Made by a program: the position numbers and the translations under genes. The notes under the pieces are model-generated. The model searched no databases. It worked only from the letters and a program-made list of their open reading frames with translations, and had not been told where the DNA came from. From the IMG/VR virus record IMGVR_UViG_3300021426_000065, positions 103,173 to 167,172 of that record: 64,000 nucleotides of DNA; one strand, given 5' to 3'. Each line of letters begins with the position of its first letter. Position 1 is the stretch's first letter. Below are positions 21,208 to 29,021 of this stretch, one piece after another. This stretch comes from a virus. Lineage: Duplodnaviria > Heunggongvirae > Uroviricota > Caudoviricetes.

Positions 21208-21708
21208 ATGCCTATCTTATATGTCATGTGTGGTTGCCCTGGTAGCGGGAAAACGACATGGGCCAATAAGTTTATAAAAGAAAATCCCGATGTGCGCTAT
21301 GTTTCCCGCGATGAGATTCGTTTTTCCATGCTTAAAGAGGATGAAGATTACTTTTCGCATGAAACCGAAGTTTTTAACAAATTTGTCGGCACTATCGCCG
21401 CAACATTAGTAGATGGCTTTGATGTTATTGCCGATGCAACACATATTTCTGTTGCTTCGCGGGCGAAGCTTCATAATGCGCTTCAAAAGAAACATTTAAC
21501 TGATAATGACTATGAAATTATTTTTATATTCATGAATACTTCAATTTCAAATTGTATTGAATATAATGATAAGCGTCGCGGTCGCTCCTATGTAAGCCAC
21601 TCTATTCTGCGGCGAATGCACTGTCAAACAACAATGCCAACAAAAAATGAATTTTCAAATGTAAAGGAAGTATGGGTGATTAATAATGGAAATCTTCCTA
21701 ACCAGTGA
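21208..21708 (+). CDS. P-loop polynucleotide-kinase-like protein (Pnk or AAA_33-like kinase module).
   Basis: Walker A motif CGCPGSGKTT and Walker B-like DGFDVIADATH. Small kinase architecture. Confidence 0.55.
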   Translation: MPILYVMCGCPGSGKTTWANKFIKENPDVRYVSRDEIRFSMLKEDEDYFSHETEVFNKFVGTIAATLVDGFDVIADATHISVASRAKLHNALQKKHLTDNDYEIIFIFMNTSISNCIEYNDKRRGRSYVSHSILRRMHCQTTMPTKNEFSNVKEVWVINNGNLPNQ

Positions 21709-22282
21709 TACACATTTCATGCACAACGTTGCTTTTCTTTATGAACCGCGCGGCTTTACTAATATTGAAGACATGAATGAAGCAATTGTAGAAAGATGGA
21801 ATAAAGTAGTTAAACCGGGTGACATTGTATATCATTTGGGTGATACAATGCTCAACGATACTGCACGCGGATGTGAACTAATGAAGCGCTTAAATGGGCA
21901 AATCTTTCTCATTTGGGGCAACCATGACACAGACGCGCGAAAAAACGCTATTTTTGAAAATTGTCCAAACGTAATTGGCGGTTGGTATGCTTATGTAATT
22001 AAATATAAGAAAATGAGTATTTATTTAAGTCATTACCCGACTTTAACCGCGAATTATGATGAAAAACATCTTTCACAACATGTATTAAATCTACACGGTC
22101 ATAGTCATCAGCAGAAGAACTTTATGTATCCTAACAATCCTTTCATGTATCATGTTGGTATGGATTCACATAATTGCACACCAGTGCATATAGATGAAGT
22201 AATGGCTGATGTTCGCCAGAGATGGCAAGACCTACAAACTTTAAAAATTCCCGTAACAGAACTATATAGTTATCCAATGTAA
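21686..22282 (+). CDS. Calcineurin-like metallophosphoesterase, possibly the 2',3'-phosphatase half of a split Pnkp.
   Basis: Motifs DTHF, GDTM, GNHD, HGHSH. Overlaps the upstream kinase gene. Confidence 0.6.
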   Translation: MEIFLTSDTHFMHNVAFLYEPRGFTNIEDMNEAIVERWNKVVKPGDIVYHLGDTMLNDTARGCELMKRLNGQIFLIWGNHDTDARKNAIFENCPNVIGGWYAYVIKYKKMSIYLSHYPTLTANYDEKHLSQHVLNLHGHSHQQKNFMYPNNPFMYHVGMDSHNCTPVHIDEVMADVRQRWQDLQTLKIPVTELYSYPM

Positions 22283-22297
22283 AATGGAGGTAATTTT

Positions 22298-22762
22298 ATG
22301 GAAAATAAATTTTTCTTACACCGTATTCGTAAAGATGGAGATACTTATGCCTGCGGCATAGAAGTCCACGATACCCTAGATTCCGCGATACAAGCTTTCC
22401 ATAGTTAGATGAAAATGGCCTATAATAATCCAAACTACCCAAATATGACGTATGTTTCTTGTATGGTAACTGATGAGCAAGATAAAATTGTTCCAGGTTA
22501 CAACGAGACTTGGAACAAAGAAAAAGTCCGTGATTTCTTTGTCCATTATATTCGCCATGATGGAGACAATTATGTCAAGGGCATTGACGTAAAAAGTAGT
22601 TATAGTGAAGCATGTCGTATGTATCATACTTATCTAGAATATGGATATGGCAATTCTAAGTTTCCAAATGTAAGCTTCGTAGCAAATAAAATCACTAATA
22701 GTAGCGGCATCGCTCATAAGAGTGAAACTTGGATCAAACCAGAACAAGAATCAAATAATTGA
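22298..22762 (+). CDS. Hypothetical protein with one in-frame TAG.
   Basis: Shine-Dalgarno TGGAGGT then ATG 22298, in frame with track ORF 22409..22762 across TAG 22406. Confidence 0.45.
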
Positions 22763-22845
22763 CTTTAATTAAAAATATGATATAATAAATATAAAGAAAA
22801 CAACCTACAACCTTGATAAAGGTTAAGATGAAAAGGAGAAAATGA

Positions 22846-27299: not shown

Positions 27300-27527
27300 A
27301 TGACACTTTGGTTTGAAAATAGTTATGGTGACGCGCGGAAAATTGCAACTTGTAAGACGCATGATGATGTTTATAAAGAAATTAACAAGTTCATTGAACA
27401 GTGTAATGCCAAGAAACCCAAGGGCGCGCGGCCATTCAAAAGCCATTATATCCGCAGTTGGGACCAAGACGGGAAAACTTGGTATGATGTTGGCAGTCAT
27501 TCAGAGTTTTTTTATACTATGGAGTAA
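27300..27527 (+). CDS. Hypothetical protein.
   Basis: Shine-Dalgarno AAGGAGG then ATG 27300. Confidence 0.45.
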   Translation: MTLWFENSYGDARKIATCKTHDDVYKEINKFIEQCNAKKPKGARPFKSHYIRSWDQDGKTWYDVGSHSEFFYTME

Positions 27528-27530
27528 AAT

Positions 27531-27734
27531 ATGAGTAACGAATATAAAGATTATATGCTGGATCGTGCGCAGGACTGTCTTCTAGATACCGGTTATTTAA
27601 GAAGAACAGAATATTGTACCGAATGGGGGTCTGGCTATTTAGTTGTTGGCTATTCTCCCGAATGGAGTAAAAAAGTTTTCTTCGTTTGGCTAGATGATGT
27701 AGAGGGTTGGAGTTTTAGAGAAGTTTTTCCTTGA
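27531..27734 (+). CDS. Hypothetical protein.
   Basis: ORF, TGA stop. Confidence 0.4.
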   Translation: MSNEYKDYMLDRAQDCLLDTGYLRRTEYCTEWGSGYLVVGYSPEWSKKVFFVWLDDVEGWSFREVFP

Positions 27735-27791
27735 CTTTTTTCTAAAATTATGCTATAATAAATATATCAAAGGAAAGGAAAGTGAAAGTAA

Positions 27792-29021
27792 ATGTTGAAT
27801 GCGAATCAAGAACGCGAGTTGGCCTATGTAGTAATTGTTGATGGTATTGAACCTATTCCAGGCTACGACCGCGTAGAACATGCCATTATTGGTGGATGGC
27901 GAGTTATTGTACAGAAAGGCCAATTTAAGGTTGGCGACCCCGCGATTTATTTTGAAATTGACTCTCGCGTACCCTCTGATAAGGAGTGCTTCGCATTTCT
28001 TGAAAAGCGCAATTATAAGGTTAAGACCTTAAAAATGTGTAAAACCATTTCTCAGGGTTTGCTTATGCACGCAACTGATTTTGGCTGGAATTGGTATATA
28101 GATGAAGGAAAAAATATTCCATATATTTATAATAATCAAACAGAAGAGCGTTATTATCCTGATAATGAATCTCGTTTCCTAACCAAGCAACTTGGCGTAA
28201 CCTATGCGGATGAAGAAGATAATCAGCGTAAAGCCGCGTCAGTAGACAAGTATAAGAAAATGGCTTCTCGTCATCCCAATATCTTCAAGAAGCCTTTTGT
28301 TCGCTGGCTAATGAAGTATAAGTTTGGCCGCGGAATTATGTTCTTCTTCTTCGGCAAAAAGAAAGACAAGAAGGGCGGATGGCCCGCTTGGGTCCAAAAG
28401 ACAGATGAAGAACGGGTGCAGAATATGCCTTGGATTCTTACTGACGAAGGCGATTGGGTAGCAACTGAAAAGATTGATGGCACTTCAACCACTTTTACTA
28501 TGAAGCGTGGTAAGTTTGGTAAAAAGTCTTTCTATGTTTGTTCTCGCAATGTATGTTTTGATAGCGTAGATAAACCTTGTTATTATGATAGTAATGTTTA
28601 TTGGGAGATGGCTAAAAAGTATAATATTTTTGATGTGCTTTCTAAAATGCTAGACAGCAATCCCTCAGAAGAATGGATTACTATTCAGGGAGAAACCTAT
28701 GGTGAAGGCGTGCAGCGCCGTGAATATTCTATGAGCGGTCATGATTTCGCAGCTTTCAACCTTGTATTCTCTACCAAAGGACGCGTAGGCACTATTGAAA
28801 TGATTGGTATTCTTTCTCAATACAATGTTCCTTGTGTACCTGTTGTTGAAGAAAAGATGAAAATTAATCAATTTGAAAATGTAGATGCTATCCTAAATTA
28901 CGCAGAAGGCAATTCCAAGGTAGATGGCCAGCCCCGTGAAGGCATCGTCTTCCGCACTCTTGATGGCACCAAGTCTTTTAAAGCAGTAAGTAATAGTTTT
29001 CTACTAAAATATCATGGATAA
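27792..29021 (+). CDS. ATP-dependent polynucleotide ligase, probably an RNA ligase (Rnl-like).
   Basis: Nucleotidyltransferase motif I EKIDGTS, motif IV EGIVFR, motif V lysines. 409 aa with an extra N-terminal domain. A separate DNA ligase exists at 36742. Confidence 0.5.
   Translation: MLNANQERELAYVVIVDGIEPIPGYDRVEHAIIGGWRVIVQKGQFKVGDPAIYFEIDSRVPSDKECFAFLEKRNYKVKTLKMCKTISQGLLMHATDFGWNWYIDEGKNIPYIYNNQTEERYYPDNESRFLTKQLGVTYADEEDNQRKAASVDKYKKMASRHPNIFKKPFVRWLMKYKFGRGIMFFFFGKKKDKKGGWPAWVQKTDEERVQNMPWILTDEGDWVATEKIDGTSTTFTMKRGKFGKKSFYVCSRNVCFDSVDKPCYYDSNVYWEMAKKYNIFDVLSKMLDSNPSEEWITIQGETYGEGVQRREYSMSGHDFAAFNLVFSTKGRVGTIEMIGILSQYNVPCVPVVEEKMKINQFENVDAILNYAEGNSKVDGQPREGIVFRTLDGTKSFKAVSNSFLLKYHG

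Follow-up and report, generated by a model that had tools for sequence, protein, structure and literature searches.

A putative phage toolkit for RNA end healing and sealing encoded beside a tRNA island

Introduction

Host defences that cut tRNA or rRNA, and the spare tRNAs and RNA repair enzymes with which phages answer them, form an active field of research. To our knowledge, the Pnkp and Rnl1 proteins of T4 are the only phage RNA-repair pathway that has been worked out experimentally. Comparative genomics provides a broader precedent, describing phage RNA-repair sets that contain polynucleotide kinases, HAD, calcineurin-like or HD phosphatases, RNA ligases, RlaP and ROT/TROVE proteins alongside tRNA arrays (PMC7824862). 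Homologues of the Rnl5 ligases have been noted in phages since 2007 (PMC1807946), and RlaP is also found in Pseudomonas Rtc operons (PMC12776372). Here, we analyzed a gene cluster, termed the module, in a stretch of 64,000 nucleotides (the window) covering positions 103,173 to 167,172 of the IMG/VR virus record IMGVR_UViG_3300021426_000065 (Caudoviricetes), in which a predicted polynucleotide kinase, a metallophosphoesterase, an RlaP-type nucleotidyltransferase, an Rnl5-type RNA ligase and a Ro60-like protein are encoded next to a tRNA island.

Based on family membership, intact catalytic motifs, conserved linkage and the placement of promoters, we regard with moderate confidence the module as a phage toolkit for RNA end healing and sealing, which would most likely keep host and phage tRNAs usable after cuts by host ribonucleases, with tRNAs cleaved by anticodon nucleases as its presumed target.

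Results

A polynucleotide kinase gene overlaps a phosphoesterase gene

The module opens with two open reading frames (ORFs) sharing 23 nucleotides (nt), in agreement with an earlier model-generated annotation of this DNA (the original prediction), which had described a P-loop kinase of 166 amino acids (aa) overlapping a calcineurin-like phosphoesterase; the coordinates of all five genes it had named (starting at 21208, 21686, 22846, 24817 and 27792; Table 1) proved correct. The first protein matched AAA_33 (1.3e-17) and the PHROG 'polynucleotide kinase' (2.6e-23), and its match to the bacterial Pnkp model TIGR04075 (2e-9; 36 bits against a cut-off of 750) covered model positions 10–137 of 851, corresponding to the kinase part alone. 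The P-loop GCPGSGKT comprises residues 9–16. At least 90% of 54 relatives retain each of its residues G9, G14 and K15, and the same holds for S33-R34-D35 with the acceptor-site aspartate, R38 and the lid arginine R123 (compare T4 R126). In the alignment to T4 Pnk, residues K15, T16, D35 and R38 are in register with K15, S16, D35 and R38 of the T4 enzyme, all four of which are reportedly essential according to mutagenesis by the Shuman laboratory. Searching the PDB with a profile of the kinase family ranked the C. thermocellum Pnkp kinase domain (4e-17) before Capnocytophaga Pnkp1 (4e-16), T4 Pnk (3e-15) and tRNA(Sec) kinase (4e-13). These best matches are all polynucleotide or tRNA kinases, which together with the retained D35 and R38 argues against a kinase devoid of polynucleotide specificity. 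On these grounds the protein is placed in the 5'-OH polynucleotide kinase clade, with the corresponding activity being predicted.

The second protein matched Metallophos_2 (PF12850) at 9e-10, PF00149 also above its cut-off, and phrog_547 at 2.6e-45, with no match in NCBIfam. All five metallophosphoesterase motifs (DxH, GD, GNH[DE], H and GHxH) are present, and D8/H10, G52-D53, G78-N79-H80, H116 and G138-H139/H141 are each kept in at least 90% of 51 relatives. Among solved structures, aq_1665 (5.6e-18) and GpdQ come closest to the protein, and we predict it to be an esterase for RNA 2',3'-cyclic and 3'-phosphate ends. The proposal that both genes represent a split Pnkp therefore stands for the kinase half, where Pnkp kinase domains are the best matches, and not for the phosphatase half, which belongs to a different metallophosphoesterase subfamily of the aq_1665 type; a scan of about 50 window ORFs yielded no hit for the Hen1 methyltransferase, the sole methyltransferase being an Eco57I-type DNA enzyme. 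The likeness to Pnkp is thus one of analogy only.

In a relative with a ligase 100% identical to that of the window (locus L001), a 1.2-kb insertion (2360–3590) with two to three small ORFs, one of them helix-turn-helix-like, parts the kinase from the phosphoesterase, and the latter has a different amino terminus and an apparent +1 frameshift right after the DxH motif. We considered a group I intron in this phosphoesterase gene and rejected it in favour of an intergenic insertion plus an apparent frameshift, as neither an Rfam hit nor an intron signature was found there.

A second metallophosphoesterase of the window, encoded from position 33499, also matches the phosphatase segment of the kinase-phosphatase-ligase fusion family phrog_8238 and lies near the ligase in 31 of the 80 loci compared below. 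It is a possible alternative 3'-end-healing enzyme, and its membership of the module is uncertain.

Table 1 Coordinates of the module and of surrounding features in the window
Feature	Position	Strand	Details	Basis
tRNA island	8452–20431	+	17 tRNAs by ARAGORN, at most 3 extra by Rfam	
tRNA-like elements	9837–9909, 10100–10169, 18870–18941		42.9, 35.8 and 32.7 bits	found by Rfam, missed by ARAGORN
YrlA-type Y-RNA-like element (candidate)	12521–12638	+		Rfam RF02553, fold, comparison
HNH and GIY-YIG homing-endonuclease-like genes	13504–13980, 18139–18801		within tRNA island	
Promoter-like site before kinase	21151–21179	+	TTGACT-N17-TATAAT	
Stand-alone 5'-OH polynucleotide kinase (predicted)	21208–21708	+	P-loop, Pnk clade, 166 aa	family and motif matches
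Binuclear metallophosphoesterase (predicted)	21686–22282	+	aq_1665/Metallophos_2 type, 198 aa	family and motif matches
ORF, no assigned function	22409–22762	+	117 aa, membership doubtful	closest relatives only
Promoter-like site before Ro-like gene	22759–22786	+		
Ro60-like protein	22846–24321	+	DUF2828 and DUF7788/vWA, intact MIDAS, 491 aa	sequence and AlphaFold model
ORF, no assigned function	24334–24732	+	132 aa	travels with RlaP and DUF5662 in 18 loci
Terminator-like hairpin and T-run after 132-aa ORF	24731–24750	+		
Promoter-like site before RlaP	24760–24788	+		
RlaP-family Pol-beta nucleotidyltransferase	24817–25590	+	GS...DxD, 257 aa	PF10127 and motifs
DUF5662 protein	25587–26174	+	195 aa; start overlaps RlaP stop (ATGA) by 4 nt	
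Terminator-like hairpin after DUF5662	26162–26181	+		
275-aa protein	26471–27298	+	optional CxxCxGxG zinc-ribbon insert, conserved C-terminal domain	between DUF5662 and ligase in 26 loci
Two small ORFs	27273–27734	+	84 and 67 aa	conserved upstream of ligase
Promoter-like site before ligase	27731–27759	+		
Rnl5-family ATP-dependent RNA ligase (predicted)	27792–29021	+	OB and adenylyltransferase, motif I lysine K227, 409 aa	domain and motif matches
Second metallophosphoesterase	33499–34419	+	PPP/lambda-phosphatase type	NinI-like PHROG 1e-25; weak PrpA/PrpB, PP2A matches
Other genes after the module		+	PurA/PurZ-like, SPFH, RNase H, dNMP kinase, ATP-dependent DNA ligase, PIN-PhoH2	
Further genes		+	two xanthine/uracil permeases, DNA methyltransferase, gyrase B/A, DnaB-like helicase	

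The ligase belongs to a divergent branch of the Rnl5 family

The ligase at the end of the module comprises PF21189 (PHA02142 OB; residues 11–92) and PF09414 (RNA_ligase; 221–399) without a C-terminal domain. It aligned over both domains with the NgrRnl crystal structures (4e-29), with motifs I–V and the KxDG lysine in register: TEKIDGTS pairs with TVKLDGSS of NgrRnl, and QGE, EGIVFR and FKAVSN align as well. Residues K227, D229, G230, E301 and E383-G384 are conserved in 74 relatives. Besides phrog_968 (2.2e-63), the protein matched TIGR02306, the DRB0094 family, at 4e-33 with 114.6 bits, under the equivalog cut-off of 151.15, and is therefore an Rnl5 member by its architecture and motifs, yet one of a divergent phage branch. 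We assign it to the RNA ligases of the DraRnl/NgrRnl type, with a predicted sealing activity. This bears out the proposed ATP-dependent ligase with KIDG and EGIVFR motifs that is distinct from the DNA ligase of the phage: the protein falls into the Rnl5 RNA-ligase clade and not into a DNA ligase clade, and a separate ATP-dependent DNA ligase is encoded at 36742–37854. An SPFH/Band-7 gene was observed 1–3 kb from the Rnl5 gene in the clade of the window (31529–32485) as well as in the unrelated Pseudomonas phage PAK_P3 (L163, 3412–4263).

Kinase, phosphoesterase and ligase form a conserved core

The window is a portion of a large phage genome with all genes on the plus strand, and its source is an uncultured large phage of gut or rumen. 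A search against cultured phages found no nucleotide similarity, near or distant, and the nearest cultured-phage homologues are less than 45% identical, protein by protein. Within genome collections, related sequences stem from Bacillota metagenome-assembled genomes (MAGs) of rumen and gut, and more than 140 IMG/VR contigs of up to 240 kb encode a ligase 52–100% identical to that of the window. For comparison, we used 80 IMG/VR loci anchored on the ligase gene; linkage was counted within 10 kb of the ligase for the 38 loci that extend 8 kb or more to either side of it.

Kinase and phosphoesterase were both present in 57 of the 80 loci, in 49 of them with a gap of less than 120 nt, and of the 38 loci with sufficient flanks, 32 had the pair linked to the ligase. 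In 20 loci the pair lies upstream of the ligase with accessory genes in between, and in 37 directly downstream, mostly 60–1000 nt away. This persistence of the trio across two gene orders argues for a functional link. The three genes form the core of the module and their clustering is above chance. The Ro-like gene (21/38), RlaP (21/38), DUF5662 (17/38) and the 275-aa zinc-ribbon protein (16/38) were linked to the ligase less frequently and are accessory, together with the small ORFs.

Independent support for the linkage comes from the gut phage Phass-1, an unrelated member of a code-15 clade whose proteins are 34–37% identical, where kinase, phosphoesterase and RlaP genes are found within 4.7 kb beside an island of about 35 tRNAs; its genome encodes no Rnl5 anywhere. 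In many relatives of the window, a tRNA array immediately precedes the module or the Ro-like gene.

RlaP, DUF5662 and further accessory proteins

The Pol-beta-type nucleotidyltransferase called at 24817 could be specified as a member of the RlaP family, as PF10127 scored 38.8 bits against a gathering cut-off of 23. Residues G29-S30, D41 and D43 are conserved in 28 relatives, and a sequence search of the PDB matched no solved structure. The Pseudomonas RlaP adds one to two nucleoside monophosphates (NMPs) to RNA 3'-OH ends, rejecting DNA and 3'-phosphate, and prefers the 5' fragment of tRNA cleaved in the manner of colicin E5 (PMC12776372). As RlaP requires an RNA 3'-OH and rejects a 3'-phosphate, a phosphatase would have to act before it and a ligase using 5'-PO4 ends after it.

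The adjacent DUF5662 protein contains the invariant residues H13, H20, H40-D41, H79-H80, H86-H87, D93 and D115, and structure prediction gave a confident helical model, for which no fold or family could be assigned, HD-domain phosphohydrolases having been considered; it is possibly a metal-dependent hydrolase. DUF5662 yielded more than 600 matches in Bacillota of gut and rumen, where it occurs as a stand-alone gene. Two of 80 bacterial genome loci (L083–L162), both on phage-like MAG contigs, have the kinase and the phosphoesterase nearby, and in 7 of the 80 a D-aminoacyl-tRNA deacylase gene is located upstream of DUF5662.

Family searches with the 132-aa ORF, the 275-aa protein and the small ORFs gave no assignable function, and the 275-aa protein had no match in the PDB by sequence.

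The protein encoded at 22846 adopts a Ro60 fold in the predicted structure

Ro60 proteins are RNA quality-control factors. The protein matched DUF2828 (1.8e-27) and DUF7788 (4.9e-39), with no match to Pfam TROVE (PF05731) and none in the PDB by sequence. Its AlphaFold2 model (pLDDT 83.5, pTM 0.83) was compared with the PDB using Foldseek, where the best 11 matches were all Ro60/TROVE proteins, aligned over 520–580 columns with E values of 4e-7 to 1e-4 and TM-scores of 0.38–0.56, among them the Ro60 of Thermus phage phiLo. Sequence identity to the solved Ro60 proteins is 12–15%. The model thus supports a Ro60 fold with a HEAT-repeat ring and a C-terminal vWA domain, in which the MIDAS residues D296-x-S298-x-S300, T361 and D393 are invariant, and the Ro60/Rsr-like call of the original prediction is borne out at the level of the fold.

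The DUF2828 family occurs in 705 cultured phage records, and its mycobacteriophage homologues carry the SEA-PHAGES label 'Ro-like RNA binding protein'. The gene abuts a tRNA island in Bacillus phage Tsamsa, E. coli phage I14.1, Listeria phage A511 and five relatives of the window (L023, L066, L068, L069 and L080), and does not do so in Vibrio phage nt-1. Between the tRNA genes and the DUF2828 gene gp57 of A511 (L171), we also observed a full-length match to ROOL RNA (2007–2558; 87.5 bits, gathering cut-off 99.1, E 2e-16).

The tRNA island contains a Y-RNA-like element

The module had been placed directly downstream of an island of more than 25 tRNAs; the island itself was confirmed, whereas the count was not, as ARAGORN detected 17 tRNAs and Rfam raised this number to 20 at most. 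The weakest of the additional elements (18870–18941) resembles tRNA-Cys, with a GCA anticodon loop and an odd D-arm. Neither ARAGORN nor Rfam detected intron-containing, split or permuted functional tRNA genes in the window.

A whole-window Rfam scan with permissive thresholds revealed a match to YrlA (RF02553) at 12546–12655 with 32.9 bits and an E value of 0.0027, below the gathering cut-off of 69. The corresponding element folds with −34.2 kcal/mol (z −3.8) into a closing stem (12521–12529/12630–12638), an inner hairpin, a T-arm, a closed acceptor-like hairpin CGUAUUC-UACG-GAAUAUG and a D-arm, an arrangement that corresponds to a tRNA-like module whose parts follow the permuted order known from YrlA. 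It lies 8 nt upstream of tRNA-Ile, with which it is probably co-transcribed. Elements of the same type were found in the relatives L290, L003 and L023, with compensatory changes in the closing stem and the acceptor hairpin; the former covaries when the window, L003 and L023 are compared. Scanning IMG/VR for the order T-loop before D-arm gave 121 matches, in which the pairing of the acceptor halves was bimodal, with 7/7 positions paired in 32 and 6/7 in 10 matches of many different sequences. In 5 of 9 loci tested, the large ORFs beside such closed-acceptor elements were canonical TROVE proteins. As these TROVE-adjacent phage elements share the architecture and reach only 30–40 bits on RF02553, a score below threshold as in the window is normal for phage members.

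The flanks of the Ro-like gene in the window are coding and contain no adjoining Y RNA; the Y-like element lies about 10 kb upstream of it and was found only by the E-value scan of the whole window. The element of L023 is flanked by a tRNA on either side and precedes the Ro-like gene by 0.7 kb, that of L256 is 5 kb from a DUF2828-like gene, and that of L003 falls into the same range of distances (0.7–5 kb). The Y-like RNA is a candidate partner of the Ro-like protein, a pairing suggested by these comparisons.

Several other RNAs were observed in such islands. A full-length match to the 'cow-rumen-3' RNA motif (RF03083; 60.2 bits, gathering cut-off 86.7, E 6e-11) is located between tRNA-Ile and tRNA-Gly of the window at 12909–13008 on the plus strand, where it overlaps a weak DUF3800-XI RNA match (12981–13028), and the same cow-rumen-3 element is found in L290. 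The tRNA islands of relatives contain tmRNA genes (L019 492–845 and 3155–3245, L080 4634–4984, L256 13199–13797, sites that include a tRNA of L019); this L019 tRNA has a CTA anticodon of the amber suppressor type, a hint at stop-codon recoding in part of the clade.

Promoter-like sites and neighbouring genes

The promoter-like motif TTGACT-N16/17-TATAAT occurs in 20 exact copies in the window, all on the plus strand, where 0.1 would be expected. The spacer mostly ends in AAAATTATG, placing TG before the −10 element (extended −10). Besides the four sites of the module (21151, 22759, 24760 and 27731), examples are found at 7969, 9018, 11522, 14276, 52656 and 55186. Within the transcription units, genes are tightly packed, as exemplified by the overlaps of kinase with phosphoesterase and of RlaP with DUF5662. 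The same promoter class precedes tRNAs and replication genes, and the module genes therefore look early and dependent on the host RNA polymerase.

Downstream of the ligase, a short adenylosuccinate-synthetase homologue of 359 aa (30447–31526) matched the PHROG 'PurZ' (1.6e-36), whereas in NCBIfam it matched PurA (6.5e-13) better than PurZ (2.8e-6). It travels with a Met/Asn-rich ORF of 183 aa (29043–29594) and a vWA/MIDAS protein of 282 aa (29597–30445) in L029 and L072–L075. The gene may be a sign of a genome containing 2-aminoadenine (Z). A protein with PIN and PhoH2 domains (38490–39716; RNA 5'-3' helicase PhoH2 family), which is RNA-directed, is encoded 3' of the RNase H, dNMP kinase and DNA ligase genes, and tandem xanthine/uracil permease genes (43221–44507 and 44491–45798) may serve auxiliary nucleobase uptake. 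A PADLOC scan found no module protein that resembles a component of a defence system.

Discussion

Proposed pathway and its weak points

If the module is a toolkit for RNA end healing and sealing, it would be expressed from the sigma-70-like promoters of the phage together with the tRNA island. The original prediction had read these genes as a tRNA repair system against anticodon nucleases or as Rtc-like RNA quality control, a proposal that the present family assignments support. The metallophosphoesterase would open and remove the 3'-terminal phosphate, leaving a 3'-OH, and the kinase would then convert the 5'-OH into a 5'-phosphate. Where a nucleotide has also been excised, RlaP could add one to two NMPs to the 3'-OH, before the Rnl5 ligase would seal the break between 3'-OH and 5'-PO4, held in place by the surrounding stem. 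The Ro60-like protein, probably with the Y-like RNA, would bind damaged or misfolded RNA ends as a scaffold or gatekeeper, by analogy with Rsr/YrlA beside rtcBA and with the Ro60 of phiLo (PMC4201824, PMC12135203). A more elaborate version, in which a ribonucleoprotein (RNP) of the Ro-like protein and the Y-like RNA captures broken or misfolded tRNAs and hands them successively to phosphoesterase, kinase, RlaP and Rnl5, and in which DUF5662, translationally coupled to RlaP, is a new metal-dependent enzyme for processing RNA ends, is a tentative proposal that we think unlikely to hold in full.

Several points weigh against an RNA-repair pathway. The ligase is its weakest point: Rnl5 enzymes act on nicks within duplexes that have RNA on the side of the 3'-OH and leave single strands unjoined, and the sole known physiological phenotype of the family is DNA genome reassembly after irradiation (PMC5397189, PMC1807946), whereas a break in the anticodon loop does not constitute a duplex nick of the classical kind. 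With 1452 records against 354 for the kinase, the phosphoesterase family is common in phages without kinase or RNA ligase nearby, such as the Staphylococcus Kayvirus, and belonging to it is in itself no proof of RNA repair. The module genes form four or five transcription units behind one promoter class and not one operon. Within 10 kb of the ligase, about 45–55% of the relatives lack the Ro-like, RlaP and DUF5662 genes. Much of the conserved neighbourhood comes from one phage lineage, and a larger block comprising the genes for SPFH, the second phosphoesterase, RNase H, dNMP kinase, DNA ligase and PhoH2 is syntenic in the closer relatives too, so that part of the conservation probably reflects shared ancestry. 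In bacterial genomes the neighbours of DUF5662 are not conserved, 78 of the 80 loci having no conserved RNA-repair neighbours, and we rejected DUF5662 as independent support for a general role in RNA repair. Regarding the RNP, searches around the DUF2828 genes of Tsamsa, I14.1 and A511 revealed no Y-like element, and an enrichment of DUF2828 near closed-acceptor elements across IMG/VR was rejected (1/37 versus 1/83), most of these elements adjoining canonical TROVE genes; the pairing of Y-like RNA and Ro-like protein is therefore reasonable without being a demonstrated rule.

Alternative explanations

The properties of the ligase lead to an alternative that we consider rather improbable, namely nick repair tied to DNA replication and repair, where kinase and phosphoesterase would clean 5'-OH and 3'-phosphate ends of phage DNA or RNA-DNA hybrids and Rnl5 would seal nicks behind a 3'-ribonucleotide, as proposed for DraRnl. 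The ligase activity of DraRnl contributes to genome reassembly after irradiation, and Rnl5 enzymes accept DNA as 5'-PO4 and template strands (PMC5397189). The genes for RNase H, dNMP kinase, DNA ligase, gyrase and helicase that follow the module behind the same promoter class fit this explanation, as do the cultured phages PAK_P3 and a T4-like Aeromonas phage, which encode Rnl5 among replication genes and without an adjacent kinase or phosphoesterase. However, the characterised RlaP enzymes are inactive on DNA (PMC12776372), two components, the Ro-like protein and the Y-like RNA, are directed at RNA, several unrelated phages have the module right beside a tRNA island, and the phage has a separate ATP-dependent DNA ligase.

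The separate promoters and terminators, together with the variable accessory genes, would also suit adjacent early genes that act independently, an explanation to which we give a similarly small chance. The Ro-like protein with the Y-like RNA could for example sequester or redirect host PNPase, the phosphoesterase could degrade signalling nucleotides, and ligase and kinase could have their roles elsewhere: phiLo Ro60 with Yrl RNAs binds and attenuates host PNPase in vitro (PMC12135203), a survey of jumbo phages suggests cyclic nucleotide signals as targets of calcineurin-like phosphodiesterases (PMC7824862), and the phosphoesterase and DUF2828 families are each widespread on their own. Independence is difficult to reconcile with kinase and phosphoesterase genes that are overlapping or abutting neighbours in 49 of 57 loci and change their position relative to the ligase as a pair, with the repetition of the kinase-phosphoesterase-RlaP cluster in Phass-1, and with the need of RlaP for a 3'-OH, which fits a path from phosphatase to ligase. 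Least probable in our view is a set dedicated to the tRNA and Y-RNA transcripts of the phage itself, serving their maturation or quality control by processing, by trimming and repair of 3' ends and by disposal of misfolded tRNAs, with no role in countering host nucleases. It would explain why the tRNA islands of this clade, Tsamsa, I14.1 and A511 have the module and the Ro-like gene at their ends, and would account for a quality-control factor of the Ro60 type and a Y-like RNA probably co-transcribed with tRNA-Ile; nevertheless, none of the tRNA genes detected has an intron or a split or permuted form that would need a ligase, and healing by kinase and phosphoesterase is typical after cleavage by metal-independent RNases rather than after RNase P/Z processing.

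Relation to known RNA repair systems

The toolkit that we favour would be a compact, abundant (more than 140 IMG/VR contigs) and differently built set in which the Rnl5, RlaP and DUF2828 Ro-like families can be tested together, and the combination of Ro-like protein, Y-like tRNA mimic and large tRNA island suggests a link of tRNA provisioning to RNA quality control. If the tentative RNP hand-off were true, it would represent a phage-borne functional analogue of rsr-yrlA-rtcBA made from unrelated enzymes and provide the first physiological RNA substrate for the Rnl5 family; if the genes are independent, the finding shrinks to the correct annotation of known families.

The module resembles the anti-PrrC pathway of T4 Pnkp and Rnl1 in its phage-encoded kinase and phosphatase for healing and its ATP-dependent RNA ligase for sealing, with a homologous kinase carrying the same catalytic residues. 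In T4, however, the kinase is fused to a HAD/DxDxT phosphatase, whereas the module has a stand-alone kinase with a metallophosphoesterase as its partner; the T4 Rnl1 is specialised for tRNA loops, whereas the Rnl5 ligase is a nick sealer; and RlaP, the Ro-like protein and the Y-like RNA are present in addition. With the bacterial Pnkp/Hen1 and Pnkp1-Rnl-Hen1 systems the module shares kinase, metallophosphoesterase and adenylyltransferase chemistry, and the best PDB matches of its kinase are Pnkp and Pnkp1. These activities are encoded by three separate genes instead of one polypeptide, the ligase is of the Rnl5 type and not a Pnkp ligase domain, and the phosphoesterase is aq_1665-like, while that of Pnkp is lambda-phosphatase-like, the PPP-type enzyme of the window being the one encoded from 33499. 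Being unfused, with another phosphoesterase subfamily and no Hen1, the cluster is not a bacterial Pnkp system, although it plausibly works like Pnkp plus a ligase.

The rsr-yrlBA-rtcBA locus of Salmonella likewise encodes a Ro60-type protein, a tRNA-mimicking YrlA-type RNA and RNA end-repair enzymes together. There, the enzymes are the 3'-phosphate ligase RtcB and the cyclase RtcA under an RtcR/sigma-54 circuit, in contrast to the kinase, phosphatase and 5'-PO4/3'-OH ligase behind constitutive-looking phage promoters described here; the Ro-like protein is moreover of the DUF2828 type and not Pfam TROVE, and the Y-like RNA is 10 kb away in the tRNA island. DraRnl of D. radiodurans and NgrRnl of Naegleria have the same domain order as the window ligase, with an N-terminal OB domain, a C-terminal adenylyltransferase and no further C-terminal domain, but comprise about 340 instead of 409 aa, as an interdomain insert of about 60 aa is typical of the phage members (phrog_968); the DraRnl gene is paired with a DEDDh-like exonuclease gene, and the genomic partners here are different. 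The Ro60 of Thermus phage phiLo with Yrl1 and Yrl2, as well as the Ro-like proteins of mycobacteriophages, provide examples of phage-encoded proteins with the Ro60 fold that is predicted here alongside a candidate Y-like RNA. The Y-like RNAs of phiLo lie directly upstream of the gene, whereas the candidate of the window is embedded in the tRNA island.

Together, every part of the module belongs to a known family, and such sets have been anticipated by comparative genomics. Specific to this cluster are the stand-alone Pnk-type kinase in translational coupling with a phosphoesterase of the aq_1665 type, an Rnl5 enzyme for the sealing step, the DUF2828-type Ro-like protein with a YrlA-type RNA within the tRNA island, and the RlaP-DUF5662 pair.

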